Shown piece after piece: positions 7,991 through 55,169 of a DNA stretch of 60,853 nt. Source of the stretch: Chiloscyllium plagiosum (taxonomy: Eukaryota). The stretch lies in assembly GCF_004010195.1 (NCBI RefSeq), contig NC_057718.1, positions 99,869,760 through 99,930,612 of the forward strand, read 5' to 3'. A program made the translations under genes and the position numbers. The notes under the pieces were generated by a model, which worked only from the letters and a program-made list of their open reading frames with translations, searched no databases and had not been told where the DNA came from. Position 1 is the first letter of the stretch; every line of letters begins with the position of its first letter.

Positions 7991-9423
7991 TTGTTACTAA
8001 GCAATGGCTACGTGAATGGTATTTTTCATGAACGGGATGTTACCCTAAGCCCAAAAGACTTTTAAAAAGCAAACAATAGGGAACTCATTGTGTTGGGAGT
8101 GTGGTAGCTAGTTTCTTGCAAAGTAAATATTTTCAACATGTAATATCTGGTCAAGCATCCTTATTGCCCCAACAAAATGGTTAATTTGAAAAAGGCACCC
8201 TCTAGGAACAGGCACAAATAGTAAACAGAGAGTCATGTAGTATGAAAACATGCCTTTCGGCCCTTCATGTCTATGCTCCATTAAACTGCATTCAGTCCAT
8301 AGTCTACAGTGTTTGGGCATTTTAGAATCCCTACAGTGGAGATTAGGATCTCCTCAGTTGAGGACTGACTTCAAGCTGGCTGGCCACAGATAAACCACCA
8401 GATGAAGGTGGCTCTGAAAGCTACGTGCTTCCAAATAAACCTGTTGGACTATAACCTGGTGTTGTGTGATTTTTAAACTAGTGACTATGGGTGACAGGAC
8501 ATCAAACCTCTGTACAGTTATTTCACAAGGTTGTAGTCATACGGGATTTCAATTTCGCTGACATTAGCTGTGATCCCATTACTGTGAAACGGTGCAATTT
8601 TTAAAAGTGTATCCAGGACAGCTTGTCACTTCAGTACGTAGATAGTCTGACTGGAGAATGGGGCAGTGCTAGAACTAAATCCAGGGAATGGAACTGGTCA
8701 AGTGATTCCGTGTCAAGTGGGGGAGCATTTTGGGGGATGGTGGTCACAACTCTTAAGTTTCAAAGTCATGATGGAAAGCGATAAGAATAGTGCAGAAGTT
8801 CAGTATCTAAACTGGGGGAAGGCTGATTTCAATGTCATCAGATAAGACAGAGAGAAAAATACCGACAGTGTTGAAGCAGGCCATTCAGCCCATTGAGCCC
8901 ATACTGACCCTCCGTAGAGCTTCTCAGCATCCCTTCTCCTATCACCTTGCATTTCCCATGGCCAGTTCACTCAGCTTGCACATTCCTGGACCCCGTGGGC
9001 AAATGATAAAACCTCATCCAGATGCTCACCCAGTATGATCAGTGGGAAAGATGTCACTCTGAGTGGGAGTTTGCCAGTTCTGTTGTGGCAAGATAAATTT
9101 GGCCAAAATGTTATTTTATCGCGGGCTCTCATGGTGCAGTGACAGTGCCCCTGTCTCAGAGGCAGGAGTCGTCAGTTCAAGTCCCACCTGCTCCAGAGGT
9201 GTGTCATACCACCTCTGAACAGGTTGGTTACAGAAACATGTACAAAGCCATGGAAAGGGAGGGGATAACTGACATCTGCAATTCAGCGTTTCTTGGCAGT
9301 AGCTACTCCAGAATGCAGATATTCCGACGAGAACATCATCCAGTTAGTCAACTTCATATGTTTTCTTTGTTTATTTTTAAAATGGTTTTGTTTTCAGCTC
9401 TCCCAGGGCAAACCAACACAAAG

Positions 9424-11056: not shown

Positions 11057-12338
11057 GGGAATAAATACCAGCCCAGCCAGCAACACCCACATCCCACAAA
11101 AGAGTATTTTTAAAAATCGGTGGAGAGAGAAACAGAGGTAAAGCTTTGAGCCCAGTATAATACTCCCTCGGAACTGTTTGAACATTCTGAAGAAGTCATA
11201 CTGACCATGGAGCATTAACTCTGTTTCTCTCTCCATAGATGCTGCCAGACCTGCTGAGTTTCTCCAGCATTCTCTGTGTTTGTTTCAGATTTCCAGCATC
11301 TGTAAAATTTTGTTTCAATTAACTTTATACTGGAATGGAGATACATCATAAAAGCTCACTTTTACTCAATGAGCAAAGACTTATTGTTGAAAGTTATTGT
11401 AGAATGCCAGGTTTCACTGTAGACAGCATGAAAAAAGGCCCTTCAGCCCATCAAATCTGTGCCAGTCAAAAGCAACCACCTAACTATTCTAGTCCTGTTT
11501 TCCAGAACTTGGCCCATAGCCTTGTGTGCCATGGCATTGCTAGTGCACATGTACAGCATGGAAACAGACCCTTCGGTCCAACTCATCCATGCTGACCAGA
11601 TATCCTATCTAGTCCCGTTTGCCGGCACTTCTAAGCCCCTCCTATTCATGCATCCATTCAGATTCTTTTAAATGCTGCAAGGTACCAGCCTCCACCACAT
11701 CCTCTGGCAGCTCATTCTATACACGTACCACCCTCTGCGTGAAAAGGTTGCCCCTTAGGTCCCTTGTAAATCTTTCCCCTCTCACCCTAATCCTTTGCCC
11801 TCTAGTTTAGGACTCCCCCACCCCAGGGAAGTGACTTCTTAAATGAGGGTTTCTGCCTCTGCTACCTTTACCGTTGAATGATGATAGTAATTGGGAAAAC
11901 GGTGCTGATTGTTTGGCAAGTCTGTGAGTTTGATTTAATGTGGACTAATTAACACGGGGGCTTTCTAACACTCCTGATCGATCTGTGGCTGTAAACCTGC
12001 ACTTGTGATAAGAACTCTTTGCTCATTGAGTAAAAGTGAGCTTCTATGATGTATCTCCATTCCAGTATAAAGTTAATTGAAACAAAATTTCACAGATGCT
12101 GGAAATCTGAAACAAACACAGAGAATGCTGGAGAAACTCAGCAGGTCTGGCAGCATCTATAGAGAGAGAAACCGAGTTAATGCTCCATGGTCAGTATGAC
12201 TTCTTCAGAATGTTTAAACAGTTCCGAGGGAGTATTATACTGGGCTCAAAGCTTTACCTCTGTTTCTCTCTACACCGATTTTTAAAAATACTCTTTTATG
12301 GGATGTGGGTGTTGCTGGCTGGGCTGGTATTTATTCCC
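11057..12338. repeat. Inverted duplication: arms 11057-11379 and 12016-12338
   Basis: Manual reverse-complement alignment: 323-bp arms, about 7 substitutions. Confidence 0.93.
11548..11830 (-). mobile_element. CR1 (HER1-like) LINE 3' fragment
   Basis: Reverse strand encodes QRVVRV..NELPE.VVEAG plus the conserved CR1 tail. Confidence 0.85.
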
Positions 12339-12628
12339 CATCCCTAGTTGCCCCTTGAGAAGGTGGGGGTGAGCTGCCTTCTTGAACCGCTGCAGACCAT
12401 GTGCTGTAGGTTGACCCACAATGCCCTTAGGGAGGGAATTCCAGGATTTTGACCCAGCGACAGTGAAGGAACGGTGATATGTTTCCAAGCCAGGATGGTG
12501 ATTGGCTCGGAAGGGAATTTGCAGGGGGTGGTGTTCCTATGTATCTGCTGCCCTCGTCTTTCTGGATGGAATTGGTTGTAGGTTTGGAGGTTTCAGTTTG
12601 AAGTTAGACTTGGTAACCACTATGCTTG

Positions 12629-12828
12629 GAGAAAGTGAGGACACCTCTGGGACACCCGGACCAACCAACCCAACCACCCCGTGGCTCAACACTTCAACTC
12701 CTCCTCCCACTCCACCAAGGACATGTAAGTTCTTGGACTCCTCCATCGCCAGACCATAGCAACACGACGGTTGGAGGAAGAGCGCCTGCCTGACCTGCTG
12801 CGCTTTTCCAGCAACACATTTTCAGCTC
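12629..12828 (+). mobile_element. Rearranged short Penelope insertion containing GIY-YIG C-terminal coding sequence, with 15-bp TSD
   Basis: HLWDTRTNQPNHPVAQHFNS...GLLHRQTIATRRLEEERL (frameshifted); TSD TAACCACT(A/T)TGCTTG at 12614-12628 and 12829-12843. Confidence 0.75.
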
Positions 12829-14639
12829 TAACCACTTTGCTTGCATACAAAACAATAGTTTATTAACGCCACAGGTTAAGGGAGATGGATACGCTTTAAA
12901 AAAAAACCTGTGTTTGTGCTTTTCAGAGATAGAGATAAAAGCAAAATACTGCAGATGATGGCTATCTGAAATAAAAACATTAAATGCTGGAGTAACTCAA
13001 TTGATCTGACAGCACCTGTACAGAGATAGCAGAGTTAATAGTTCAAGTCCAATCAGACTTTTCAAGGACCTGCTGAGTTTCTCCACTATTTTGTTTTTAT
13101 TTCAGAGGTAAGTATTAATTAGTTAATGACAGTAGTCGGGTCAACTAAGAGACAAAAGCACGGGAAACACCCCTGCGGTGGTTCAGGAAGGTGGTTCACT
13201 ACTGCCTTCTACTGGGCAGCTAGGGATGGAGCAACAGAAGCTGAGTTTGTCAACGCATTCCAAAATTAACATGAATTGGATGTAGGAACGACATCTGCAG
13301 CATGAGTACAGCTTTGGTCTCCTTACTCAGGGAGGGAGGTTGGAGGCAGTTCACTTATGCTGAGAGGTAGGATCAGAGGGATTGTCTCCCCAGAAGCGGT
13401 GAGGAGGTTGAACCTACACGCATCTGGGTTTGAATCGATGAGGGTGATCTTATCAAAAGCTGAGATCCTGAGGCAGGTATTGATTATTTTAACTGACTTT
13501 AGGGACTCACCTCCAGGGCAGGTGGGACTTGAACCCAGGCCTCCACACCAAGAGGTAGGAACACTGCCACTGCACCACAAGTGCCCTTTTGATATAGTTT
13601 GTGTTGAGAGGATGTCTCTTTTGCGGAGGAATTTTGAATTAGGAATCTAAGGATGATAAGGATCAACGTCTTTTCTTAGAGGGTCATTTCACACTGGCTG
13701 TGCCATGGCAAGTGCCCTATTCACATGGAAAATGCCAACCTGGAGTATGCCCAGGGCACAGGGGTAAGTATGGTTTCCAACTTCACCTCAGACCAGGACC
13801 CAGCTTCAGAGCCGAGATCTGACTCTCACCTTGGAACATTAACCTTTATCAATTCAAATGTCAAACATCAATCTTCCTTCCTCCTCTCGGATCCTGCACA
13901 GCCTGTTTAGCATTTTTGAAGTTTATTTTGGGCATTCATTATTATTTTTGTCTCTGCCAGATGTCTCACAATTTGAACTATGTGGTTGGTGGCAATACCA
14001 AGAGAAATGAAGAGGTTATTAACTTGTTGTAACAACTCAAGTGCTTTTCAAGGTTTGGAACTGTAGCAAGGACACTCTTACGCAAGCAATGTTCATCTCT
14101 ACTTTAACCCAACGTCCATGTATGACTTTTGCTTTAGTAATTCAGGGGTATGGGCGCATCGCGCCAACATTTATTGCCCATTTCCAATTGCCCTTGAGAA
14201 GGTGGTGATGAGTTGTCTTCTTCAACCTCTGCAGTCCCCGTGTGTTCAGGATTTTGACCCAGTGACACTGAAGGAATGGCGATATGTTTCCAAATCGGTG
14301 TGTGCCTGGGTGGAGAGCTGGTGGTGTTGCCATGTATCGATTGTAGATGTTGTGGGTTTGGAAGGTGCTGTCGAAGGAGCTGCAGTGCGTCTTGTGGATG
14401 GTTCACACAGCTGCTACTGAGCATTGATGGTGGAGAGAGTGAAAGTTGGTGGTTGAGGCATTAATCAAGGGGCTGCTGCTTTGTCCTGGATGGTGTCAAG
14501 CTTCTTGAGTGATATTGGAGCTGCACCCGTCCAGGCAAGTGAGGAGTATCCCATCACACTCCTGACTTGTGCCTTGTATCTGGACAGACTTGGGCATGAG
14601 TTACATAGGGTGGCCCTCCCAGCCTCTGACTTAACAATT

Positions 14640-14972: not shown

Positions 14973-15962
14973 GGCTGTATTTATGTAGCTGGTCCAGTTA
15001 GTTTCTGGTCAATGGTAACTCTCAGGATATTGAGGTTGGGGGGAATTCAGTGGTGGCAATGGCACTGAACTTGAAGGGAGGATGTTTCGATGATCTCTTA
15101 TTGGAGATGGTCATTGCTTGGCAGTGGTGTACTATGAGTATAACTGGATCTCATACAGTCTGGCTTCCCATGAATAGAAAGACCTGTTTGATGTTTGTGT
15201 AAGATGGCAGGCAGGGGTCATGCCGCTTAAAAAAGCAAATGAGAGCCATTGCTTTATAAACACAAATCTTCTATATCCGTGCCACAGAGAGCTGTGAGAG
15301 CTTGTGTATATTTAAGCCTGAGATAGACAGATTCGTCATCAAAAGGGGGGAATCAAGGGTCACGGGAAAGGGCAGGAAAGTGGACATGAGGAGTGTTGGA
15401 TCACCCAGGATCCTATTGAATGGTACAACAGGTTTGATGGGACGAATGGCCTATTCCTGTTCCTGGTATTATAGTCTCATGCTCTTCGATCGGTGTCTTG
15501 TGAGTTGCCTGCTCACTCTTTGAAGGAAGGGGCACTGTTCCTCTGACCATCAGGCACTTCACAAGACACCTGTGGGCCTTCTGCTCGACTGAGGACCCCA
15601 GGATGTGACATCTCAAACATCCAGGACTATCTTCCAATTAGAGGTTGGCAACCCCAGCACTTGGCTGTGGCTCTTTCTGGTACGACAGTGTCCAAGGAGT
15701 GACCCAAGGACGAAGGGATGGCATTGGAGTCAGTTCAAAAGAGATTCACTAGGCCGATGTCCAGGGATGGAAGATTTGACTTAGTGAGGATGGCTAAACA
15801 AATTAGGCCTGGTTTCCTTAGTCATGGAGTCATACAGCAAGGAAACAGACTCTTCGGTCCAACCAGTCCATGCCGACCATAATCCCAAACTACACTAGTC
15901 CCATCTGCCTGCTCCTGGCCCATATCCGTCCAAACCTTTCCTATTTATGTCATTATCTAAGT

Positions 15963-16085
15963 AGGTAAAAATAAGGACTGCAGATGCTGGAAATCGACGT
16001 TTTGGGCAAAAGCCCTTCACCAGGATTTTCCTGCTCCTCGGATGCTGCCTGACCTGCTGTGCTTTTCCAGCACCACTCTAATCTA
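15963..16085. mobile_element. Short Penelope-derived insertion (family A) inside a CR1 tail
   Basis: TSD GTC(A/C)TTATCTAAGT at 15949-15962 and 16086-16099; partial inverted structure. Confidence 0.75.
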
Positions 16086-17220
16086 GTCCTTATCTAAGTG
16101 TCTGTTGAACATTGTAATTGTACCCACATCCACCAATTTCCTGCCTTCCCTCCAATACACTTTACACCCTTTCTATCCAATAACCATCCAATGTCCCTCT
16201 GGAATGCCTCAGTTCAACCAGCCTCCACACATTTCCTGGCAGGATTTTCCACACCCTGACCACTCGCTGGGTGAAAATGTTTTTTTTTTTCTCTCATTAC
16301 ACTTGCTTCTTTTGCACATCACTTTAACCCTATGCCCCTCTCATTCTCGATCCTGAACAGGAATTGCTTCCCCCGTCCCCTCAGTACAGCTTGCCTTTGG
16401 TTTTGAAAACCTCTATCAAACCCCTTCTCAATGGAGAACAGTACCACTCTCTTCCATTGGTCTTAGATACTGAAGTTTCTCATTCCTGGAACCATTCTCG
16501 TTAATCGTTTGCGTATTCTCTCTCTCCGATGCATTCCCAGCTTTCCTACAATGTGACACCCACAGCTGTTTGATTTGACTTTATTATTGTCATGTGTACC
16601 CAGGTACGGTGAAAAGTTTTGTTTGGATGCAGTGCAGGCAAATCATTACCTTACAAAATGCCTTAGGGCAATAGAACAAAATACAGGTGCACAAAGGGCA
16701 AGATTTGATTTGAAGGTTGAGAAATCCAGTCAGAATAACAGCGGGGAAGATTCCAAGTTCTTGAATCTATTGGTACGTGTGTTTAAGCTTTTCTATCTTC
16801 TGCCCAATGGAAGAGGTCTTTGATGGTGACTGCTTTCCTGAGGTAGTGTAGATGGAATCAGTAGATGGGAGATTGGTTTGTGTGATGGACTGGGCTGTGT
16901 TCCCAACTCTCTGTAGTTTCTAATGGTCCTGGGCAGAGCAGTTGCCGCTGTACGCAATACTGCAGCTGAGATCACCAGCTGCAGAGGGATGCGCAAGGCG
17001 ATACCTAAATGAAGTGCGCTCCAGGGGAAATGATACCACGGCGAGGAAACTAGCTCGGTTTTGCTCCTTGCTGAATGGTTGGGTTTTACCAAGAAACCCC
17101 AAACATTTCATTCAGGCATAAACCGAGAATAAACAAACAAAAAAAGAAAACCACACGCCACAACCTCAAAAGAGAACATTGGTCACAGCGTCTTGGCCGG
17201 TCCTGGTTTCCCTGAGCAGC

Positions 17221-17426
17221 TCTAGATCAGAGTGGTGCTGGAAAAGCACAGCAGTTCAGGCGGCATCTGAGGAGCAGGAAAATCTGCCTCTATTCCTGAT
17301 GAAGGGCTTTTGCCCGAAACGTCGATTTTCCTGCTCCTCGGATGCTGCCTGACCTGCTGTGCTTTTCCAGCACCACTCTAATCTAGACTCTGGTTTCCAG
17401 CATTTACAGTCCTTGTTTTTAACCTA
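17221..17426 (+). mobile_element. Palindromic Penelope-derived insertion (family A) with hammerhead motif at ~17292-17327
   Basis: CTGATGA-A-GGGC-TTTT-GCCC-GAAA-CGTC; inverted arms; imperfect TSD TTTCCCT(G/C)AGCAGC. Confidence 0.8.
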
Positions 17427-17844
17427 GTTTTCCCCTCAGCAGCTACAAATACTTTATGTTGTGAATGTAAACTGAAGGGCAAGGTCTTCTGATTAATTCA
17501 TAATGCGCCAATTAACAAATATAATTATCAGCGGACTCCAAAGCTGGGAAAGTGCGTTTATCGGATGTTTCAACCAAGTTACAGGGCCCCTTTAAGGTGT
17601 GTTTTCCTGTTTTTTTTTTGGGACTTCCTGTTTTCCGTTCCAGTGCAAGTAAGTCTCACATAATAATCCCACTGGGACACAAAGGATCAACTGGCAAATA
17701 CAGTTTTCATCCTGGGATCTGTGCAACCATTTGATCGTCAGACGCTGGGAGGGCGAGTTTGTGTACAGTTCCGAGATTTTACTTTAAATGCAGGCTCGAG
17801 TTAGAGAATTGTGACAGGGCTGGGGAGAAATTATATCGCTGCAG

Positions 17845-20885: not shown

Positions 20886-21454
20886 TCTGTGAGTGGTGCA
20901 AATGGAACATAAAGGCTGATCGTAAACTCCTACGCTGAGCTGTAGATATTACTGGGAATGCTCAAAGGCAATCCTTGTGGGTTATCTGACTGAGTTACTG
21001 TCTCACTCTGTTTTAGTGGCTATCCCGGACTCTCCCCAATGTGTGCATTGATGTCAAAGATGAAAGTGTAATGCTTTTTGCCCATCCTTTCACATTCTGT
21101 GCCTGCTCCTCATTGAAGGAGTTGACAATGACATGATGGCAACATCACCAGGCTAATACTGCAAGGGAGCTGGGTTCAAATCTCACCTTTACAGCTGCTG
21201 TATATTTATTATCATTCAGAATCATTAATAAACCCGGGATTACACCCTCAGTGATAACGAGCATGAAAGTATCATTGTTGTAAAATTCCCACCTGGTTCA
21301 CCCTGGCAGGATAGGGAATCCGCGATGCGTACCCGGCCTGGCTTGTACATGATTCCGAACCCACAGCAATAGGGTTAACATTGAAGTGCCCAAGATTTGT
21401 AGCTCAGGCTGAGGTTCAGGTTGTAAGATTGCTCACTGAGCTGGAAGGTTTGTT

Positions 21455-21496
21455 CTCAGACGTTTCGTCACCACGCTAGGTGACATCATCAGTGAG
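21455..21496 (-). ncRNA. Minimal hammerhead ribozyme motif (PLE family C) in a Penelope pseudo-LTR fragment
   Basis: Minus strand CTCA-CTGATGA-T-GTCACC-TAGCGT-GGTGAC-GAAA-CGTC-TGAG: perfect 4-bp helix I, 6-bp helix II, ACGT palindrome, GUC triplet. Confidence 0.7.
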
Positions 21497-22744
21497 CCTC
21501 TGGTGAAGTGCTGGTGTTCTGTCCCACTTGTTATGTACGTGTTGTGGTCTGTTGTGTTTTGGTCCCATTGTTCTACCTACTGGATGCTGAGTCTACTTTT
21601 GAAACAGTTGATCTTATTCATGTGCAAAGTCTATGACGGTGGGTAATGATGTCATGTTACGGTTGCAGAATGGCTTTGTGGTGAGCTGTAATGTCTGCCT
21701 GATGGTACTGACCCCCTGTCCACATGTTGTGGGAGGGGAGAGATGTGCAGACAAACCTGTCTCATTCTTTACAGCTGCTCCGGTGCTTTGTGAGGGCAGT
21801 ATAATGAAATATCAAATCATCAAGCACATTGATTGATCAATTACAAAGGGGAACAGTTGGGACCTGGCCTGATGCATGGAAAGAGCTGGGAGACTGAGTC
21901 TTTAATAAACTCTGTTTGCAAAGAACGGTGTCTTGCTTTCTATCTCACTGGTCAGGATCTGAGCTGATTTCTATTGAAGGTGCAACAGGACTCACAGCTT
22001 ACAAACTATTTGCAGAGGGTGTGTGTCAAGTCATCCATTCACTGGAGCACACAAGGTGATCATTCAGCCCTTTGAGTCTCGCTGGTTATTTGTGAACAAA
22101 ACTCGAGAGTGAATCTGCAGCCTCATCTTCCAATGAGGTTTGGCTGATTTCTCCAGCAAATGCAGAGTAATCCAGGTTGTTCAGCTGTAATGTGCGTTTT
22201 GTCAGCGTGAATTGGCTATAACGTGATTGACAAAGTGTGGACATTGTTTGGATAATGCGGACTTTCTGTTGAACAGATGTAGCGATTTTCTATGAGCAAT
22301 AATCTACAGCATGATTTTCTACAGTGGTTTTCCATAGCGTGATTTTCTATAGCGTGGGGTTACAGAAGAACACAACTGTCACATTAGAACAGATCGCCCT
22401 ATAATGTAAAAGTCCTGGGAATAAGATCAATCTATATTGGCTTACATCAGCATGGTTCCTTGGTCTGACTGGCAGGGGGGAATACCCAAACATCTCTAGA
22501 AATTGCGGAGTTTCTCTGTGCAACCCTGAGCAATGTCACGTTGGTCTGTCGTTGACTGAGAGGAAGGTCAGAGTTTAGGCCTGTACACTCTGGAGTTTGG
22601 GAGAACGAGAGGAAATCTAATTGAGGTCCATTAGGAGCCAAAGGGGATTGACAAAGTGGATGTAGAAAGAATGTTTCCTCATGTGGAGAAGTCTAAAATG
22701 AGAGGTCATAGTTTCAGGGTAAGGGGCAGCAGATTTGAAACAGA

Positions 22745-24420
22745 GTCATAGAGATGTACAGCATGGAAACAGACCCTTCGGTCCAACCCGTCCATGCCAA
22801 CCAGGTATCCCAACCAAATCTAGTCCCACCTGCCAGCACCTGGCCCATATCCCTCCAAACTCTTCCTATTCATATACCCATCCAAATGCCTTCTAAATGT
22901 TGCAATTGTACCAGCCTCCACCACTTCCTCTGGCAGCTCATTCCATACACGTACCACCCTCTGTGTGAAAAAGTTGCCCCTTAGGTCTCTTTTATATCTT
23001 TCCCGTCTCACCCTAAACCTATGCCCTCTAGTTCTGGACTCTCCAACCCCAGGAAAAAGACTTTGTCTATTTATCCAGTCCATTGGCCCATCTGGTCCAG
23101 ATCCTGTTGTAATCTGAGGTAACCTTCTTCACTGTCCATTACACCTCCAATTTTGGTGTCATCTGCAAACTTACTAACTGTACCTCTTATGCTCGTATCC
23201 AAATCATTTATGTAAATGACAAAAAGTAGAGGACCCAGCACTGATCCTTGTGGCACTCCACTGGTCACAGGCCTCCAGTCTGAAAAACAACCCTCCACTA
23301 CCTTTCNNNNNNNNNNNNNNNNNNNNNNNNNNNNNNNNNNNNNNNNNNNNNNNNNNNNNNNNNNNNNNNNNNNNNNNNNNNNNNNNNNNNNNNNNNNNNN
23401 NNNNNNNNNNNNNNNNNNNNNNNNNNNNNNNNNNNNNNNNNNNNNNNNNNNNNNNNNNNNNNNNNNNNNNNNNNNNNNNNNNNNNNNNNNNNNNNNNNNN
23501 NNNNNNNNNNNNNNNNNNNNNNNNNNNNNNNNNNNNNNNNNNNNNNNNNNNNNNNNNNNNNNNNNNNNNNNNNNNNNNNNNNNNNNNNNNNNNNNNNNNN
23601 NNNNNNNNNNNNNNNNNNNNNNNNNNNNNNNNNNNNNNNNNNNNNNNNNNNNNNNNNNNNNNNNNNNNNNNNNNNNNNNNNNNNNNNNNNNNNNNNNNNN
23701 NNNNNNNNNNNNNNNNNNNNNNNNNNNNNNNNNNNNNNNNNNNNNNNNNNNNNNNNNNNNNNNNNNNNNNNNNNNNNNNNNNNNNNNNNNNNNNNNNNNN
23801 NNNNNNNNNNNNNNNNNNNNNNNNNNNNNNNNNNNNNNNNNNNNNNNNNNNNNNNNNNNNNNNNNNNNNNNNNNNNNNNNNNNNNNNNNNNNNNNNNNNN
23901 NNNNNNNNNNNNNNNNNNNNNNNNNNNNNNNNNNNNNNNNNNNNNNNNNNNNCTCCTGATTTCCCTCTTAAGTATACTCCTACTTCCTTTATACTCTTCT
24001 AAGGATTCACTCGATCTATCCTGTCTATACCTTACATATGCTTCCTTCTTTTTCTTAACCAAACCCTCAATTTCTTTAGTCATCCAGCATTCCCTATACC
24101 TACCAGCCTTTCCTTTCACCCTAACAGGAATATACTTTCTCTGGATTCTCGTTATCTCATTTCTGAAGGCTTCCCATTTTCTAGCCATCCCTTTACCTGC
24201 GAACATCTGTCCCCAATCAGCTTTTGAAAGTTCTTGCCTAATACCCTCAAAATTGACCTTTCTCTAATTCAGAACTTCAACTTTTAGATCTGATCTATCC
24301 TTTTCCATCACTACTTTAAATCTATGAGAATTATGGTCGCTGGCCCCAAAGTGCTCCCCCACTGACACCTCAGTTACCTGCCCTGCCTTATATCCCAACA
24401 GTAGGTCAAGTTTTGCACCT
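22745..24420 (-). mobile_element. CR1 (HER1-like) LINE with RT domain; internal deletion near 23077 and an N gap at 23307-23952
   Basis: [22 protein letters not shown]...[12 protein letters not shown] motifs; linker region WEAFRNEI...CWMTKEI; C-terminal QRVVRVWNELP. Confidence 0.92.
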
Positions 24421-25242
24421 TCTGAATTAGGTACAGAGATAAGGAGAAATTACTTCTCTCAAAGGGTATTGAATCTGTGGAATTTACTCCCCCAGAGTGC
24501 GGTGGATGCAGGGACATTGAGTAAATGTAAGGAGGAGGTCGTTTTTTAATTAGTAAAGGGTTAAAGGGTTTTGGAGAGTGTGCGGGAAAGTGGATTTGAG
24601 GCCGAGATGATCGTATTAAGTGGCGGAGCAGTCTCGAGGGGCTGAATAGCCTACGCCTGCTCCTGGCCCTAATGTAAATCTGACTTTTGTGCGGGAACAA
24701 TGTTTTTTGGAGTCTGTGGAAGACCTGTTAAAGTGTGGAGAGGCAGTTTGACCTTACAGAGGACTGTGTTCCGGTTCACCATGGGGCTAAAGCTTGTGCT
24801 GATTTTTTAAAAAACCCAGTCCACTCACTGTGATGTGACAGCCTTACACTTCCAGGAAATGGTTTTTGTTTCAGGCTTCCTCCAACCTGGTGGGGTAACA
24901 GATGGCTCAGGCTAAAATGCCACAACACAAACATGTCCTGTTGAGTTTGTGTTTGTCAAATGCATGAGTACATCTGGGCCCTTCACACTCGGGGGCCTAC
25001 ACATCAGCCTCTTGGGGACGTTCCACTCAAATCCATTAACGGAAAATAGGAGCACCATGGGCGAGACAACATTTGGGTTAAGTTCATAAGCTGCTGTGTT
25101 ACAAACTACCAGGCTCAGGCTTTTGATGTTATCAGTGTAACACCAACAATTCAGTTTCAGTTGTTAGTTGAGGGAAAAGCTGATTTACCCAAAAACATTT
25201 GTAGATCATTTACTGATTTTGGATCAGGAGAACCTGTACTTA

Positions 25243-25810
25243 GAATCCCTACAGTGTGGAATTCAGCCCTTCGGCCCAACAAGTCCACACTGACCCTCGG
25301 AAGTGTAACCCACCCAGAACCATTCCCCTACCCTATTATTCTACATTTACCCCTGACTAATGCACCTAATCTATAAATCCCTGAACAGAGCTGAAAATGT
25401 GTTGCTGGAAAAGCGCAGCAGGTCAGGCAGCATCCAGGGAACAGGAGAATCGACGTTTCGGGCATAAGCCCTTCTTCAGCATTCCTGAAGAAGGGCTTAT
25501 GCCCGAAACGTCAATTCTCCTGTTCCCTGGATGCTGCCTGACCTGCTGCGCTTTTCCAGCAACACATTTTCAGCTCTGATCTCCAGCATCTGTAGACCTC
25601 ACTTTCTCCTCAAAGATATCCCTGAACACTATGGTCAATTGAGCATGGCTAATTCACCCTAACCTGCGCATCTTTGGATTGTGGAAGGAAACCCAAGCAG
25701 ACACAGGGACAATGTGTTAACCCCACACAGTCAGTCGCCTGAGGCTGGAATTGAACCCGGGTCCCTGTCCCTGTGAGGCAGTAGTGCTAACCACTGAGCC
25801 ACCACGCCAC
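25243..25810 (-). mobile_element. HE1-like SINE interrupted by a Penelope-derived palindrome
   Basis: Reverse-complement tail at 25243, head at ~25810. Confidence 0.85.
25388..25617. mobile_element. Palindromic Penelope-derived insertion (family A) with back-to-back hammerhead cores
   Basis: Near-perfect ~90-bp arms centred at ~25480; TSD ATCCCTGAACA at 25377-25387 and 25618-25628. Confidence 0.85.
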
Positions 25811-25931
25811 TCCTGGGGCCCTGACATTACTAAAAAAGGTTAGAATAAGTCCCAAGTAGCAAACAGATTCCTTGGAAGTTTTACTCTCATTATGGAGGCA
25901 AGACTGTACAGCTTGCAGGCATTTTATAACT

Positions 25932-26166
25932 AGGAGAAAGTGAGGACTGCAGATGCTGGAGATCAGAGCTGAAAAATGTGTTGCTGGAAAAGCGCAGCAG
26001 GTCAGGCAGCATCCAAGGAGCAGGAGATTTGACGTTTCGGGCATAAGCCCTTCTTCAGGAATGAGCCCTTCCTCACTCCTGATGAAGGGCTTATGCCCGA
26101 AACGTTGATTCTCCTGCTCCTTGGATGCTGCCTGACGTGCTGCAGTTTTCCAGCCACACATTTTTC
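25932..26166. mobile_element. Palindromic Penelope-derived insertion (family A)
   Basis: TSD GGCATTTTATAACT at 25918-25931 and 26167-26180; inverted arms with CTGA(A/T)GA...GAAACGT on both strands. Confidence 0.85.
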
Positions 26167-26285
26167 GGCATTTTATAACTGTATGGTCCCTCTGGTCATA
26201 TTCCTGAACCATCGCCCCATGGATCAATATTTCATCCATGTGGCTGATGACACAGAATCATCGAGCTGAACAGCACTGAAACAGA

Positions 26286-27052
26286 TTCTGGATTAGTGGT
26301 GCTGGAAGAGCACAGCAGTTCAGGCAGCATCCAAGGAGCAGCGAAATCGACGTTTCGGGCAAAAGCCCTTCATCAGGAATAAAGGCAGTGAGCCTGAAGC
26401 GTGGAGAGATAAGCTAGAGGAGGGTGGGNNNNNNNNNNNNNNNNNNNNNNNNNNNNNNNNNNNNNNNNNNNNNNNNNNNNNNNNNNNNNNNNNNNNNNNN
26501 NNNNNNNNNNNNNNNNNNNNNNNNNNNNNNNNNNNNNNNNNNNNNNNNNNNNNNNNNNNNNNNNNNNNNNNNNNNNNNNNNNNNNNNNNNNNNNNNNNNN
26601 NNNNNNNNNNNNNNNNNNNNNNNNNNNNNNNNTGGTTGATTTGTGCGGGTGTCCCGGAGATGTTCCCTAAAGCTCTCTGCTAGGAGGCGTCCAGTCTCCC
26701 CAATGTAGAGGAGACCGCGTCGGGAGCAACGGATACAATAAATGATATTGGTGGATGTGCAGGTAAAACTTTGATGGATGTGGAAGGCTCCTTTAGGGTC
26801 TTGGATAGAGGTGAGGGAGGAGGTGTGGGCACAGGTTTTACAGTTCCTGCGGTGGCAGGGGAAGGTGCCAGGATGGGAGGGTGGGTTGTAGGAGGCATGG
26901 ATCTGACCAGGTAGTCACAGAGGGAGCGGTCTTTGTGGAAGGTGGAAAGGGGTGGGGAGGGAAATATATCCCTGGTGGTGGGGTCTGTTTGGAGGTGGCG
27001 GAAATGTCGGCGGATGATTTGGTTTATGCGAAGGTTGGTAGGGTGGGAGGTG
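26286..27052 (-). mobile_element. Penelope-like retroelement 3' portion: post-RT linker, GIY-YIG endonuclease and terminal repeat with hammerhead motif (26345-26380)
   Basis: Minus strand INQIIRRHFRHLQTDPTTRDIFPSPPL..., then (frameshifted) PCHRRNCKTC...FTCTSTNIIYCIRCSRRGLLYIGETGR; N gap 26429-26632. Confidence 0.88.
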
Positions 27053-27054
27053 AG

Positions 27055-27505
27055 CACCACGAGCCTTCAGTCCAACTCGTCCATGCCGACCAGATACCCT
27101 AACCTAATCTAGTCCCATTTGCTAGCACTTGGCTCATATCCCTCTAACCCCTTCCGACTCATATACCCATCCAAATGCCTTTTAAATGCTGTAATTGTTT
27201 CACCCTCCACCACCTCCTCTGGCATTTCATTCCATACACATACCACCCTCTGTGTGAAAAAGTTGCCCCTTAGGTCCCTTTTGTATCTTTTCCCTAGCAC
27301 CCTAAACCTATGCCCTCTAGTTCTGGACTCCTCCCCCCCCCCCCCCCACCCTAGGTAAAAGACCTTGTCTATTTACCCTATCCATGCCCCTCATGATTTT
27401 ATAAACCTCTATAAGATCACCCCTCAGCCTCTGACAGTCCAGGGAAAACAGCTCCAGCCTGTTCAGCCTCTCCTTATAGCTCAAACCATCCAACCCTGGC
27501 AACAT
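27055..27505 (-). mobile_element. CR1 (HER1-like) LINE 3' fragment
   Basis: MLPGLDGLSYKERLNRLELFSL...LRGDLIEVYKIMRG. Confidence 0.88.
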
Positions 27506-29062: not shown

Positions 29063-29789
29063 GCCGTTTTAGTCCCTTTATCATGTAGATTCGTACTTTT
29101 TAAAACATTCATTCATGGTGTGTGGCTACCAATGGCTGGGCCAGCATTTATTGCCTATGTGTAATTATAGAAGGTGGGGGTGAGCTGCCTTCTTGACTCA
29201 CTGCAGTCCATGTGCTGTAGGTAGAGCCACAATGACATTAGAGAAGAAGTTCTAGCGTTTTGACCCACTGACACTGTGTTCCGACATCAGGATGGGGAGT
29301 GTCTTGCAGGGAAACTTGTTGATTGGTAGTGTTACCATGCTGCTCACCCTCCGAGATGGGGCAGGTTGCAGGTTTGGAAGGTGTTGTTGAAGGAACCTTG
29401 ATGAATTTCGGCAGTGCATCTTGTAGTGATGCACACTGCTACTGCATGTTGGTGATGGAGGGAGTGAAGGTACGTGGGTGCATTGCCAATCAAGTGAGGT
29501 GCTTTATCCTGGATGGTAGGTGTAAGTGAAGACTGGAGATGCTGGAGAACAGAGTCAAGATTAGGGTGCACTCATATCCTAGAGGGTGTCAGGCTTCTTG
29601 AGTGTTGTTCGAGCTGCACCCATCCAGGCAAATGAGGAGTAGTCTGTCACACTCTTTGATCTGTGCCTTGCAAGATCATAATGCCATAAGATATAGGAGC
29701 AGAAGTGGTCATTCAGCCCATCAAGCCTGTCCTGGCACTCATTGAATCCTTGGCTGTTTTGCTAATCTTCAACTCAAATTTCCTGTTTG

Positions 29790-32880: not shown

Positions 32881-33237
32881 TTCCAACATGAATCTGTAGT
32901 TTTGGTCTCCTTATCTGAGGAAGGATGGTCTGACTACAGAGAGTGTGCATCGTAGGTTTCACCAAATTGATTCCTGGGACAGCAGAACTGATATATGAGG
33001 AGTGATTGAGTTGGTTAGGATTGTATTCGCTGGAGTTTAGAAAAATGAGAGGGGTATTTCACAGAAACCCATAACATGCCGACAGGATTGGATCACTTTG
33101 ATTCAGAAAGGATGTTCCCAATGGTGAGGGAGCCCTGAACCAGAGGTCATAGTTTAAGGATAAAGGGGTAAACCATTTACGACTGAGATGGGGAGAAATT
33201 TCTTCACTCAGAGAGCGGGGAGTCTGTGGAATTCACT

Positions 33238-33363
33238 CGGAGAGAGTGAGGACTGCGGACGCTGGAGATCAGAGAGAAAAGGTGTGGTGCTGGAAAAGCA
33301 CAGCAGGTCAGGCAGCATCCGAGGAGCAGGAGAATCGATGTTTCGGGCACAAGCCCTTCGCCA
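33238..33363 (-). mobile_element. Penelope terminal fragment (family A) inserted in a CR1 fragment (32890-33560, +)
   Basis: TSD GGAATTCACT at 33228-33237 and 33364-33373. Confidence 0.78.
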
Positions 33364-34039
33364 GGAATTCACTACCAGAGAAAATGGTTGAGGCCAAAAC
33401 ATTGTGTTTTCAAGAGGGAGGTAGATATAGCTCTTGTGACTACAGGGTTCGCTGGGGGGGGGGAAGCAGTTAAGTTATTGAGCTTGGTAGTCAGCCATGA
33501 TTATACTGAATAGTGGAGCAGGTTGTAGTTAGGCTCCTGTTCCTCTATGTTTCAGAGCTGAACTGGAAACTCTACAGCTTTTATATTTTGTGTCATGTCT
33601 TATTACCATTATCACTCCCTTTGCCTTTCGTTAGGGGGTACTTGTGTAGCCTTCCTCCCCCTCTAACCTCCCCTTCTGCTGCTCTTGTCTCTCTCACCCT
33701 TCTTCATGAAGCCATTATATTTCCATCTCTCTCCATTTGGACTTGAGCCATTCCTCTCTCCCATGGTGTTGCTGAGATTCTGCAGCAACCTTTGGGTCTA
33801 CCTCAGCCCTTCACCATTCCCCCCTTCTCTCGCAGACTTGCCTAATTTCCTTCTGAAAGCTCTGACGTTACCGCAGTCACTTCCTGTAGTAGCAAGTTCC
33901 ACAGTCTAGTGAATGCCGTGTGGAGGAATTTCCTGATTAATTTTCGACGAATGTTTAGCAAGTAAGACGTTCCTCAAGTGCAAACCCTTTAATTGAAGTG
34001 GGTATCAGGAGGTGATGGGAAAGCGGACAGAGAATTCAT

Positions 34040-44355: not shown

Positions 44356-45879
44356 CAGTCTGGCTGCAAACCCCTGGTTCTGGATTCACTAGTCTCCAGA
44401 AACATCCTTCCTGTGCTTACCCTACCTAGTTGTGTTAGAATTTTACAGGTTTCTACAAGATTCCATACCCAACCCCTCCCCCACTATTGTTTTAAACCAC
44501 AGCGAACACCCTAAACGACTCATTCTCTTCTCATATGTGAGTCCTGCCAGCCCAGGAACCAGTCTGAGAAACCCACGCTGCACTCCCTTGCCAGAACGTC
44601 CTTGCTCACTCAGATAAGGAGACCAATGTGTGGACAGTGTGCCAAGTATTCTGTCCCTCCCACCCTGGAGTTGTGAGCTCAGGGCCAGCAGTAGCTACCA
44701 TGGAGGTCACACTGATATTCAATAGTTGTAAGGCCGCTTTAAGTCCATTTGTTTTAAATTGGGTGGGTGGGTATGGATTGCTCTGAGGCCCAATTGCTGC
44801 TGCAAAAAAAACTCCATCAGAAAATAGACGTTGGATTTTTTTCTCTCATAGAAAGCCCACTTTTTTTTTCTGAACTCCTCCCACACTCAACAAGTCTCCC
44901 CCAACAAATAACGCTATCAAAAACCAAAGCCCATTCCTCTCCCCGATAACAGTGGATGCCACCCGCTCCCCCAATCTCTGCCCTCCCAACCTCATGTGCC
45001 CCATGGTTTTTACTCATGGTATATGGAGGCAAGTCACAGATCAGCCATGATCTCATTGAATGGTGGAACAGTCCCAAGGGGCTGAATGGCCTTTTCCTCT
45101 TCCTTTGAGGGCTGGCTGTTGAGGCACTAAGAAGCACTGGCTTAATAGTGAATGCTGCACAAAGGAGCTTTTGAAAAATTGTTATGAGTAGGAAATGGCT
45201 TTTTTTTCCTAAGTGGGTAGCAACTCACACAGCAGATTCATTGCTTAACCTTCCTCCTGTCAACTTGCATTGGATTTGAACAACGGGAGTTAAATTTATT
45301 CTAATCATTCTCGATGCAGCAGATAAACAGTACCTCACCTGCCTGAACCGGGACGTTTTGGAGGCAGGAGCTATTAACTAAACCAGATGTTTAATCCATA
45401 GCCGACGGGAGGTCTTTGAAATTCCTAATGGGAGTGAGGAGACTGGTGTAAAATTGTATTTCTGCTGACATTGAGTTTCTGCTGCTGGAAACACCTTGAA
45501 TTATCTTGTCTGAGAATTGGTAATGTTTTGAGTTTCTTTTTGAACATCGGGAAATATCCATCGGTAAACATGGGAGGCGAGTTTTTGTTTTGAAAGTTGA
45601 ATTGGAAACTAGATCCATCCATCAGCCATGATGTTATTGGAGGATAGAGTAGGCTTGAGGGGCTCAATGGCCCACTGCTATTACTTGGGTTCAGGCAAAA
45701 GAAACAGAAGCTACAAGGGCTGGTGGGGTGTTTAAATTCCTGATGAAGCGCTTATGCCTGAAACCTCAACTCTCCTGCTCCTCAGATGCTGCCTGACCTG
45801 CTGTGCTTTTCCAGCACCACACTCTTCAACTCTGACCTCCAGCATCTGCAGTCCTCACTTTCTCCAAGATTTATAGACT

Positions 45880-46535: not shown

Positions 46536-47019
46536 TTATTTGTTGGAGTCTGGAAGGAATTGAATCATAGAATCCTTACAGTGCACAAAGAGGCCATTCA
46601 TCCCATCGAGTCTGCACTGACCTCCAAAGAGCATCATAAACAGATCTAGTCCCTAACCTATCCCTGTAACCCTGCATTTCCCATGGCTAACCCACCTCAC
46701 CTGGGGACTTTGGGCAATTTATCATGACCAACCCCACCCTAACCTGCACTTTAGACAAGTGAGCCTGTCCTGCAGAGAGCTTTGATGTGTAGGTGCGGGT
46801 GTTGGAGAAGTCACACGGGTTATAATCCAACAGGTTTATCTGGAATCACTAGCTTTCGTAGGGGCTGCCCCTTGGCCAGGTGAAGTGAGAGCTAGCACAG
46901 ACATACTGAGCGGAATGGCCTCTACCTGTGCTGAAATGATTCTGTGAAGGGATCACACACATCTCATCATGTCCAGCGACAACATTCCCCTCCCCACCAT
47001 CCCGGGTCAATATTTCAAG

Positions 47020-48632: not shown

Positions 48633-50759
48633 AATTTTTATTATGGCAGCTTTGTATCACACAGGATGCTGAAAGCAATTTGAGTCTGAGAAACCAGCAG
48701 CTAAAGTGTTTTCTGTTTGGTGTGTAATCAGGCATTCAGTCACAAATGGGTGTTTGTTTGTATTTTGTGTGTGCGTGTCTGATTTGCCTGAAGCCCTTTG
48801 CATGGGGGGGGGGGGGGGTGGGGGGAATGGGGTGGTGGAAGGAGGTAGTTCAGCAATTAGTGGTCCCCATGAATGCCCTGAGAGGGGGAGCTGTTAATTG
48901 AACAACAAATTATTTCAAGTTGTTGTTTGCATGCAATCTTTCCATCATAGCTTTCGATGGAGTCACTGAGGATTGAGATTGTGGAAATCCCCCAGGGTCA
49001 ACTCCCTGGCTTACCCCCAAAACAGAGGCAATTTTATGTCAAGGATAAATGTGCTGTGTTTTAAAATTAAAATCCATTTCAGCAAGAAATTAGGTTCAAA
49101 AATGAGATGGGGAGAAGCGGGCAAACGTTTGGAGAGAGAGAAAGTTTAAACGTTTTGTCCCAGTTCTCTGACAATTAGGTCAGTAACATAGAGGACATCA
49201 GTTTAAAAATTACTGGCTGAAAGATCTGGGGAGAGAAGGGATGAGTTTTTTTTAAACATCAAGGGTTGTTAAGGGACTGGAACGCTTTGGAAGCTCTGTA
49301 AATAATTTTTGAGAGGGGTTTGCATGTCCATGTGACAGTCAAAACGCAGGCATCTGGGTCTAAACATCAGGTGCAAAGGTCTAGCACGGGCTCAATGGGC
49401 CAAATGGTCACTTTCTGGTGGCTGGCAGGAGGGAGAGGGTGGTGGTCTGTGATTCGCACTGAAATAGACCCAGTCAGGAGGGGGATTCCTATTAATCGGG
49501 TTTATGGAGAGGGGTCCTGCGGTTAGGAGTAAAATGGAGCAGTGTGAAAGCTTTCCTTGGATTTCTTAAGATTGAATCCGATGAAATGTCGATGTGGGAT
49601 GTGCTTTTACCGTGAGTGGAGCTTTGAGGGAAGATCTGATTTGCTGGATGTTGTTCCCTTTCAACTGAGGAGGTTGAGGGGAGATTTGATTGAGGATTTT
49701 TTTCCCAACTCTGAGGGGCCTCAATAAAGTGGGACAGAAAGTACCTGGGAGGTGATGGCCATGGAGTTATTGTCACTGGGTCGGGAATCCCCAAACTCTA
49801 TGGTAAATGGTGTGAATCCCACTACAGTATTTGGTGAAATTTGAATCAAATTTGGAATTAAAGAAACAAATTTGCCAAAAGTTATTGCTTTTTAAAAATT
49901 TGCTGATACCCTTTAGGGAGGGGAATCTGTCATTGCTGCCTGGCTGATGTGTGACTCCAACCTGGTTGACTGGTAATGTACCCTCTGGACAGTTGTAAAT
50001 AAAGAGTTCTCTTTATTGGTGAAGTGGTAGTGGCCCAACCTCTGGGTCAGGAGTTCTGGGTTCAAGACCCAACTGCTCCAGAGGTGTGTCGGAACACATC
50101 TAAACAAAGGACAATGAACCTTACAGCACAGGAACAGGCCCTTCAGCCCTCCAAGCCTGCGCCAAACCAGATCCTCTATCTAAACCTGGCGCCTATTTTC
50201 CAAGGGTCTGTATTCCTCTGCTCCATGCTCATTCCTGTATCTGTCTAGATACATCTTAAATGACATTATCGTGCCCACCTACCACTGGCAACATGTTCCA
50301 GGCACTCACCACCCTCCGTAAAGAACTTTCCACACATATCTCCCTTAAACTATTCTCCTCTCACCTTGAACTCACGACCCCTATTAATTGAGTCCCCTAC
50401 TCTGAGGGAAAAAGCTTCTTGCTACACCTCTCATGATTTTGTAGACCACAATCAGGTTCCCCTGAACCTCCGTCTTTGTAATGAAAATAATCCTAATCTA
50501 CTCAACCTCTTTTCATAGCTAGCGCCCTCCATTCCAGGCAACATTCCTGGTGAAGTTGATTTGTTTTTAAATAAATGGCTTCGGGTTGGTGTTCCAAACC
50601 AACAAATGCTGTTCCAGCAAGCAATGCTCATGCCCGTTGAGTGAGTACAACAACTTGGCCTCCTTTGTGGAGCTGTCACTGACCAAGGATCACAGCAGTC
50701 AAGAGAAACTCTTTCACTCAAGGAAGTGGTGGGTATCCAGGACTCACTGCATGAAATGA

Positions 50760-50885
50760 AATGAAGGGCTTATGCCCGAAACGTCGATTCTCCTGCCCCT
50801 CGGATGCTGCTTGACCTGCTGTGCTTTTCCAGTACTACACTATTAACTCTAATCTCCAGCATCTGCAGTCCTCACTTTCACCTGG
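50760..50885 (+). mobile_element. Family A Penelope terminal fragment (5'-truncated within the hammerhead core)
   Basis: ATGAAGGGCTTATGCCCGAAACGTCG...GTCCTCACTTTC; GAAATGA flanks both sides. Confidence 0.75.
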
Positions 50886-51599
50886 GCGAAATGATTTTTG
50901 AAAGAGAGACCTCATCACATCTATAAGGTACAGGGTCGAATACCATAACAAATAGCAACTAGATTAGGCCATTCGGCCCTTCGAGCCTGCTTCACCATTC
51001 AGTAGGATTGTGGCTGATCCAACATTCCTCATGTCCACTTTCCTGCCCTTTCCCTGTAACCCTTGATTCCCTGACTGATCAAGAACCTATCTCAACCTTA
51101 AGTATGCACAAGGACTCTGCTCCCCAGAGCTCTCTCTGTGACAAGGACATTCAACCCTCTGAGAGAAGGAACTCCTCCCCATCTCAGTCTGAAATTGGTG
51201 TCCCTTTATTCTGAGACTGTACCTTCTGGTCCTAGACTCCCCCATGAGGGGGAGACATCCTCTCAACATTGACCCTGTCAACTCCCTTAAGAATCTGATA
51301 TGTTTCAAAGAGGTCACCTCCCATACTTCTAAAATCCAGGGAGTAGAGTTCCAACCTGTTTAACTTTTGCTCCTAAGACAATCCCTCCAAGCCAGGGATC
51401 GTCCTAGTGAACCTTTACTGAGCTCCCTCCAATGAAATGAACTGACCCTGAAGGCTACTGCTTTCAGCGCTGCTCTTGTTGCATCCAGAATATCCATGGT
51501 GGACTGAATGGCCTCTCTCTGAGCTGTAAAGCTTCTATAGTCATGTCGGGCATGACGTTTTCTGATCACACACAAGCGTGACACTCTCCTCTCCCCTAG

Positions 51600-54181: not shown

Positions 54182-54394
54182 CAGACACGTGTACAAAGTA
54201 CAGTGAAAAGCTTTGTTTATGAGCGGTGCAGGTAGGTCATAGCAGGGATGTAGAGATCAGAGAGACTGAGGCACAGACCTACAGGTTAAATTAGGCAAGA
54301 GCATTGGTGGCAAGGTCAGGATTGTTTGAGGTGAGAGAGGCCAGTCATCGGTCTAGTAATGACTGGGAAGAATCTGTGGAAGGTGTACAAGTTG

Positions 54395-54573
54395 AAAAAA
54401 TGTGTTGCTAGAAAAGCGCAGCAGGTCAGGCAGCATCCCGAAGATTCCCGAAGAAGAGCTTATGCCCGAAATGTCGATTCTCCTGCTCCTTGGATGCTGC
54501 CTGACCTGCTGCGCTTTTCCAGCAACACATTTTTCAGCTCTGATCTCCAGCATCTGCAGTCCTCTCTTTCTCC
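54395..54573. mobile_element. Palindromic Penelope-derived insertion (family A) within a Rex1/Babar-type tail that carries (GATT)n at 54144-54180
   Basis: Perfect 15-bp TSD AAGGTGTACAAGTTG at 54380-54394 and 54574-54588. Confidence 0.85.
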
Positions 54574-54660
54574 AAGGTGTACAAGTTGCCTTGTACACCT
54601 CTGTTAGGTACATAGGGACCTAGGTACAGTTTCTTCAGTTACAGTTCTTAGTAAAATCCA

Positions 54661-54883
54661 TGATTTGGAGGAGCCGGTGTTGGACTGGGGTGTACAAAGT
54701 TAAAAATCACACAACACCAGGTTAGAGTCCAACAGGTTTAATTGGAAGCACTAGATTTCGGAGCGCCGCTCCTTCATCAGGTGGTAGTGTCCACAAATAC
54801 CTGATGAAGGAGCGGCGCTCTGAAAACTAGTGCTTCCAATGAAACCTGTTGGACTATAACCTGGTGTTGTGTGTGATTTTTAA
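54661..54883. mobile_element. Palindromic Penelope-derived insertion (family B) with hammerhead-like cores on both strands
   Basis: ~85-bp inverted arms; CTGATGAAGGAGCGGCGCTC(C/T)GAAA; TSD CTTAG(T/A)AAAATCCA at 54647-54660 and 54884-54897. Confidence 0.85.
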
Positions 54884-55169
54884 CTTAGAAAAATCCAGCA
54901 TTGCAGGTTTTAGGAAGAAAGCAACACTTCAGAACAACAGTTTTCCAACATCAACTGGTGCTAGGTCAGTTGATAACTTGGAATTTGGGAACAATAGAAT
55001 ATTTCTATCTAAAGGGACATAGGACAAAGGCAACTCTCTGAAGGTAGGTCACAGAACAGCCATGAGAAGTTAATTGACCCCCTCCTGTTCCCATGTTGCC
55101 GTGAACCTGTTAGTGTTCGTTCCACTATCTTAGTAGTTGTAACTGGTCTTTCAATCTCCGTCCCTGCAG

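Follow-up and report, generated by a model that had tools for sequence, protein, structure and literature searches.

Inverted truncated copies, tails and TSDs are standard in Penelope-like elements (PLEs). According to the parts of the reports considered here (Arkhipova 2013, PMC3846280; Craig et al. 2021, PMC8557442; Schostak 2008, PMC2377424), complex EN+ PLE insertions comprise a head-to-head inverted 5'-truncated copy, a 30-40-bp tail at one end, a TSD around the unit, and a pLTR located downstream of the C-terminal GIY-YIG domain, and all these features are shared by the Chiloscyllium plagiosum insertions analysed in this study. Unlike in those insertions, the main copy in C. plagiosum is also trimmed to the pLTR, giving a 150-235-bp palindrome without an ORF; the tails measured are 39-41 nt long, and the TSDs are 11-15 bp versus 8-10 bp in the rotifer passages considered. 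The CX2-5CxxC linker of the Neptune and Nematis clades was also defined by Craig et al. (2021). Minimal hammerhead ribozymes (min-HHRs) in the pLTRs of metazoan PLEs are for the most part dispersed single motifs, with opposite-strand pairs found in some cases (Cervera and De la Pena 2014, PMC4209133), have by definition a helix I of 4-5 bp and, according to a review, cleave as dimers. Compared with the min-HHRs of PMC4209133, helix II of the cores described here has only 4 bp, helix I of the family designated family 1 is reduced to 2 bp plus a mismatch, and the opposite-strand cores are 5-20 bp apart; sharks are not mentioned for metazoan min-HHRs in the part of that paper considered. Non-LTR retrozymes (Cervera and De la Pena 2020, PMC7229834; Li et al. 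2026, 10.64898/2026.07.22.740005) are likewise short, non-coding, pLTR-derived and equipped with a type-I hammerhead, but they form head-to-tail tandem repeats, whereas the copies described here are dispersed, single or head-to-head, and flanked by TSDs. An identity as non-LTR retrozymes was rejected, as none of the 11 family-1 insertions is a head-to-tail array. The sample of Li et al. contained Neptune and Poseidon, with no Nematis listed in the part of the source considered. For the Poseidon element of Anolis carolinensis (Frangieh et al. 2024, PMC11167929), both target strands were nicked and extended in vitro, two reverse transcriptase (RT) start sites bounded the tail, the start sites lay near the hammerhead, and uncut RNA was the main template. 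That element belongs to the Penelope/Poseidon clade, whereas the C. plagiosum element has a Neptune/Nematis Zn-finger linker, and neither inverted copies nor 5'-end clustering is treated in the part of the report considered. The formation of inverted ends and the in vivo role of the hammerhead are still presented as open questions in the parts of the PLE literature considered. No description of this shark family or of its 5'-end clustering was found in the titles and opening parts of abstracts of the papers listed. Both the layout and the ribozyme have already been described for Penelope-like elements, and the element itself is ordinary.

The window, i.e., the whole stretch of 60,853 bp of C. 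plagiosum DNA that was analysed, had been described in an earlier note as carrying two neighbouring TSD-flanked insertions (25388-25617 and 25932-26166) with a minimal type-I hammerhead core on each strand. Both insertions were confirmed, with exact TSDs of 11 and 14 bp and inverted arms of 92-98 bp, and all four cores matched the minimal-hammerhead descriptor, which supports their predicted identity. In the following lists, arm positions are numbered from the predicted cut, some of them having been read by eye.

25377..25387, unstranded: insertion 1, left TSD copy of 11 bp (exact repeat; present once in the paralogous SINE)
25388..25479, minus strand: insertion 1, short pLTR arm without a tail, beginning at -28
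25452..25479, minus strand: insertion 1, minimal hammerhead core of the short arm (CUGAAGA, bulged A, 4-bp helix II, GAAA, ACGU palindrome, GUC)
25480..25617, plus strand: insertion 1, long pLTR arm, starting at -33
25485..25512, plus strand: insertion 1, minimal hammerhead core of the long arm (descriptor search)
25577..25617, plus strand: insertion 1, PLE tail of 41 nt, long arm only (tail as described in the considered parts of PMC3846280 and PMC8557442)
25618..25628, unstranded: insertion 1, right TSD copy (exact 11-bp repeat)
25918..25931, unstranded: insertion 2, left TSD copy of 14 bp (exact repeat)
25932..26065, minus strand: insertion 2, long pLTR arm, starting at -35 (tail 25932-25970, core 26031-26058)
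26066..26071, unstranded: insertion 2, 6-nt centre
26072..26166, plus strand: insertion 2, short arm lacking the tail (core 26079-26106, in which the triplet has decayed to GUU)
26167..26180, unstranded: insertion 2, right TSD copy (exact 14-bp repeat)
25240..25822, minus strand: abundant tRNA-headed SINE, interrupted by insertion 1

The inverted arms are complementary over 97 nt at 98% in insertion 1 and over 98 nt at 90% in insertion 2, a few TSD bases being included in these figures. Both insertions are lopsided, with an extra tail of 39-41 nt at the outer end of one arm. Their TSD scores were 11 and 14, respectively, versus a maximum of 10 in 59 random boundary pairs. The SINE, which we take to be HE1-like, is uninterrupted at the insertion-1 site in all four other copies aligned, and its closest paralogue (27.7 kb) has the TSD 11-mer once; the insertion-1 TSD is therefore real. 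Among the matches listed for DNA contigs of related organisms, where other copies dominate, no empty allele of either insertion was found, and the one contig of another organism that spans the left junction of insertion 2 includes no more than 20 element bases, which is not enough to be counted. A templated insertion was considered as the origin of the insertion-2 centre and was mostly dropped once the upstream sequence of the family became visible. The two palindromes are real, and they are pLTR stubs of a Penelope-like element rather than a new kind of mobile element.

The descriptor used for the hammerheads combined CUGANGA, a bulge, a helix II with G10.1-C11.1, GAAA, a palindromic tetramer and NUH. 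In the window it matched 10 cores, eight of which are complete (palindromic helix-III tetramer and NUH triplet) and include all four of insertions 1 and 2, compared with a mean of 0.26 cores (maximum 2) and 0.01 complete cores (maximum 1) in 200 dinucleotide shuffles. Back-to-back cores occur in three of the seven inverted insertions, namely the two above and a copy of a second family (54697-54886). Helix I consists of two pairs, a mismatch and one pair in family 1 (predicted pairing probability <=0.06), three pairs in family 2, and four in family 3. Across these three families, which represent three lineages only, helix II, the helix-III pair and helix I vary yet stay complementary; the family-1 helix-II changes at 45.7 and 54.4 kb disrupt pairs, as expected for decay. 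In the in silico fold, the pairing probability of helix II was 0.00 in the whole palindrome versus >=0.99 in the long arm alone, and the predicted fold of the palindrome reached -193 kcal/mol (z -28), in line with the earlier suggestion that a read-through hairpin would mask the ribozyme. Each insertion has one sense core per strand, so the back-to-back pair would not supply a dimer from a single transcript. No Rfam hammerhead family appeared among 22 matches obtained at E up to 5, all below the gathering score; sub-threshold miRNA matches fell on both insertions and were attributed to the hairpin shape. Such palindromes can be mistaken for MITEs or microRNA precursors. The core pattern gave no matches in metagenome contigs, and 48 metagenome-contig matches to a 19-mer, none longer than 26 bp, were dismissed as chance.

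The parent element is represented in the window by coding fragments, of which the one at 26633-27060 (minus strand) had been overlooked by the earlier note.

26279..26428, minus strand: pLTR belonging to a related subfamily, with its core at 26349-26376; it lies downstream of the endonuclease fragment, from which a 204-N gap separates it, and the scan gave no TSD
26633..27060, minus strand: PLE coding fragment with the RT-EN linker carrying CX4CxxC, then CxxC and the GIY-YIG start; one frameshift
12614..12843, unstranded: gap-free PLE copy with a 15-bp TSD, consisting of an inverted 15-nt tail arm, an EN C-terminal fragment (12642-12788) and a tail-less pLTR end

The coding fragment is located ~470 bp from the two palindromes, and the related-subfamily pLTR arm lies ~110 bp beyond insertion 2. 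The Pfam GIY-YIG match of the fragment (E 0.0011) is below the curated cut-off. The best of 53 proteins found, P0001 (486 aa, named from Chiloscyllium punctatum), is 91% identical to the fragment and has weak RT and GIY-YIG matches, and a 688-aa RT+GIY-YIG protein, in which RT precedes GIY-YIG, is 44% identical to it. The RT core is absent from the window, and the RT-then-GIY-YIG order rests on the relatives P0001 and P0018. The Neptune/Nematis Zn-finger-like linker CX2-5CxxC before GIY-YIG is present as CX4CxxC, and the CCHH motif is distributed over the fragments, with CxxC and the first H in 26633-26911 and the second H in the 12.6-kb fragment and P0001. In the 12.6-kb copy, the EN C-terminal part is joined gap-free to the 3' part of the pLTR (12642-12829), and an internal deletion precedes the tail-less pLTR end. 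The pLTR with its hammerhead thus follows the ORF across the N gap at 26279-26428 and gap-free at 12.6-12.8 kb. Since the arm is linked to PLE coding sequence twice, it is the pLTR of a canonical EN+ Penelope-like element; judged from the motifs, the arms are the ends of an element of Neptune/Nematis type. The coding sequence linked to arms at 26.3-27.1 and 12.6-12.8 kb also supports the proposed PLE origin and mobilisation by a PLE RT/GIY-YIG protein.

In total, 11 family-1 insertions with 17 arms (six inverted and five single) were found in the 59,955 non-N bases of the window, i.e., ~1 per 5.5 kb instead of the one per 7 kb estimated before. In addition to insertions 1 and 2 and the two copies associated with coding sequence, they include the following.

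15949..16099, unstranded: inverted copy flanked by a 14-bp TSD; the long arm begins at -30 and has an internal deletion, and the short arm begins at +1
17207..17444, unstranded: inverted copy flanked by a ~15-bp TSD; the long arm begins at -40 and the short arm at +1
54380..54588, unstranded: inverted copy flanked by a 15-bp TSD; the long arm begins at -32 and the short arm at +17
33228..33373, minus strand: single-arm copy beginning at -32; its 10-bp TSD overlaps the 5' end
45736..45865, plus strand: single-arm copy from -32, no TSD found
50758..50894, plus strand: single-arm copy from -25, weak 7-bp TSD
29505..29587, minus strand: short decayed single-arm copy without a core, weak TSD

Six of these loci had been listed as related copies. 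Three of them (15963, 17221 and 54395) are indeed inverted, with one core region each, and the other three (33238, 45737 and 50760) are single-arm copies; none of the six holds two cores, and only one (17296) passes the strict descriptor. In the TSD scan of 12 insertions, six scored above the maximum of the 59 random pairs and 10 above the 95th percentile, and no TSD was found at 26.3-27.1 and 45.7 kb. Between 193,000 and 250,000 contigs from the DNA runs of three organisms aligned to the window, almost all on its repeats (arms and SINE); the family is very abundant, and these contig totals are not a copy number. In about 6% of one raw RNA run no reads were obtained, which does not amount to a test of expression. 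At least three family-1 insertions lie within other repeats, SINE or LINE pieces (25240-25822, 26260-26290 with 27065-27100, and 33106-33420), and this nesting is probably just a matter of repeat density. Internal deletions bounded by short microhomologies were observed in two copies (15963-15995 and 12786-12790).

The structure of the arms bears on the suggestion that a palindromic MITE-like unit is copied whole. The two palindromes flagged at the outset are similar in size (230 and 235 bp) and layout, as such a unit would be. However, the tail is present on exactly one arm and the centres differ in all seven inverted insertions (six of family 1 and one of family 2), the outer ends of the short arms vary, the TSDs are 11-15 bp, and the short arms split by subfamily together with their long arms, each remaining within the subfamily found at its locus. 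Between the two arms of insertion 1 there is one difference in 92 sites, as against five between its short arm and the next long arm. The same comparison is marginal for insertion 2 (9 differences in 95 sites with its own long arm, 10 in 92 with the other) and tied at 54.4 and 17.2 kb, so that the test is clear for one of five short arms, the short arm at 16.0 kb having no own comparison. The one-arm tail and the all-different centres indicate that the mirror arm was made at insertion, and copying of the palindrome as a unit, contradicted by the centres and by short arms that track their own locus or subfamily, is extremely improbable.

The outer ends of the 17 family-1 arms form two groups, seven at +59 to +72 and ten at +98 to +106. 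The inner ends are clustered as well: ten lie between -40 and -25 and two at +1, the stretch from -24 to -1 being empty, with three located further 3' and two running into the ORF. Under the most favourable memoryless truncation model, this clustering has P ~3e-7 by arms and 7e-5 when each insertion is counted once (8 of 11), values to be read with the zone having been picked after the data were seen, with 17 arms and 11 events from one window, and with copies that may share a truncated master. Three single-arm copies also end in the -40 to -25 zone, and the clustering is therefore a property of 5' ends and not of inversion. In family 2, the six arms that include core sequence have only 3-8 nt in common on the 5' side of the core, as read by eye without a longer family-2 reference. 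Among the matches listed for the three related-organism DNA runs, one run shows 187 contigs, with mixed flanks, that terminate at -32; the consensus of this pile opens like the upstream sequence of the other subfamily, and part of it may represent longer copies. The clustering of arm 5' ends fits an RT running off mostly uncut RNA.

These positions also qualify the earlier claim that the inversion point repeatedly falls at the ribozyme. It holds insofar as 10 of the 17 arm 5' ends lie just 5' of the core; only two are at the predicted cut, and single copies behave alike. The related proposal, that ribozyme cleavage defines the RNA end and thereby the inversion point, agrees with the two arms (16.0 and 17.2 kb) that start at +1, the base after the predicted cut, and with the core and helices kept by covariation across the three families of the window. 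The +1 ends could, however, also reflect an RT stall at helix I or a fold-back there. All four arms of insertions 1 and 2 extend 28-35 nt past the cut, so a cut RNA end cannot have set the inversion in these two, unless RT crossed a circle junction or jumped; ten of the 17 arms end 5' of the core, and the 12.6-kb copy inverts far from the ribozyme. Moreover, in the considered part of PMC11167929, ribozyme mutants left insertion unchanged in vitro, and no RNA-seq reads ended at the cut. Cleavage as the determinant of inversion is accordingly considered quite unlikely.

The pile at -32 invites another explanation, in which a non-autonomous, SINE-like pLTR stub of ~135 nt with a fixed start at -32 serves as the template, is moved in trans by the PLE protein and gives rise to the palindromes by twin priming. 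The start is exactly at -32 in three arms and at -33 in one, contig ends pile up at -32 in the one other run, stubs far outnumber coding copies (9 of the 11 family-1 insertions lack an ORF), and in both of the subfamily upstream sequences observed, the A of an initiator-like YYANWYY motif falls at -32. Against this, the starts range from -40 to -25, the stubs fall in the same subfamilies as the ORF-linked copies, and the motif is low in information and is not found at that offset in family 2; such a stub template is regarded as unlikely. An intron that terminates at helix I, the arrangement described for Drosophila virilis, was rejected since no AG directly precedes -32 and the arms starting there share no upstream exon.

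Each palindrome contains two head-to-head pLTR ends of ~100-140 nt, one tailed and one not, between TSDs of 11-15 bp. In LINE-1 twin priming, both target nicks prime, which results in 5' inversion and junction microhomology, and the two arms come from non-overlapping parts of one RNA. Unlike there, five of the six family-1 inverted copies hold the same sequence copied twice. The palindromes are probably heavily 5'-truncated twin-primed insertions of an EN-bearing PLE of Neptune/Nematis type, in which two cDNAs were end-joined. The GIY-YIG domain would nick both target strands 11-15 nt apart, and each 3' end would prime reverse transcription, with the start at the tail end (+98 to +106) for one and at a tail-less site (+59 to +72) for the other, often aided by a few bases of microhomology. 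Both cDNAs would then stop and be end-joined. Most would stop 0-12 nt 5' of the hammerhead core, where, in the most likely case, the uncut template RNA starts or the enzyme lets go, and a few at the cut site. The back-to-back cores would arise because both cDNAs stop just past the cores, cleavage not being the cause of the inversion. After insertion, the copies would decay, and in a read-through RNA the ribozyme would be concealed within a long hairpin. The two groups of outer ends, with the tail on one arm only, match the two RT start sites and the nicking and extension of both strands demonstrated in vitro for the Anolis PLE in the considered part of PMC11167929.

Five of the six family-1 inverted copies are also compatible with cDNA fold-back, by which a single tail-primed cDNA would self-prime via the helix-I complement or a short stem, make the short arm and join the other target end; self-priming from junction palindromes was proposed by Arkhipova (2013) in the part of PMC3846280 considered. 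In the same number of copies, the tailed arm extends in the 5' direction at least as far as the short arm does. The 16.0-kb copy, with its long arm at -30, its short arm at +1 and a 2-nt overlap, contains exactly both helix-I strands, and private variants are common to both arms of insertion 1. However, fold-back leaves the single-arm ends in the same zone unexplained, helix I is weak (pairing probability <=0.06), and the centre of insertion 1 has no priming stem. It also cannot make the 12.6-kb copy, in which a 15-nt tailed arm faces a tail-less arm running into the ORF: these arms do not overlap, so two primings are needed and a self-copying cDNA cannot yield the structure. Fold-back is a possible source of the other inverted copies, though we believe it to be the less probable course; besides cut RNA or an RT stall at helix I, it could also account for the arms at +1.

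Under twin priming, each small insert of this very abundant family preserves the two priming sites together with the two points at which cDNA synthesis stopped, and the sharp 5'-end clustering makes a genome-wide test of the PLE mechanism easy. A broader reading, put forward tentatively and with considerable doubt, is that PLE 5' ends form a fossil record, in which the main peak before helix I would mark the start of uncut RNA, the +1 class would mark RNA cut in the germ line, and the palindromes would reflect a two-subunit RT priming from both nicks near the RNA 5' end. If this is true, the ratio of +1 to -32 ends at very large copy number would measure in vivo hammerhead cleavage during transposition.

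The window contains two further hammerhead families. One copy of the second was missing from the family list of the earlier note and belongs to a different family with the same layout.

54647..54897, unstranded: second-family copy with back-to-back cores whose helix II is different, ~36 additional nt at one side and a 14-bp TSD

The second family has a 5-bp helix II and an AGCU helix-III palindrome, and it is represented by this one back-to-back copy with a TSD and by single arms at 4698-4757, 4893-4964, 8394-8476 and 46818-46882, several of them with deleted or mutated cores; no coding sequence is linked to it in the window. The third minimal hammerhead, located in a single pLTR-like stretch (~21390-21540, minus strand), has a helix II of 6-7 bp and a perfect 4-bp helix I and is the best-formed core in the window. 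Among the other repeats, an inverted duplication of 329 bp (11057-11385 and 12010-12338, 97% identical, ~625 bp apart) holds a decayed copy of an older related repeat, a short piece of which is also found at 58742-58790. LINE-type RT fragments, presumably CR1/L2-like as assessed by eye, flank a 646-N gap at 23071-24263 (minus strand). A long G-rich tandem repeat (1-2948) with a strong GC skew yields spurious long open frames, and an imperfect palindrome of 76 bp (57977-58052), unrelated to the hammerhead families, has a sub-threshold Rfam miRNA match.
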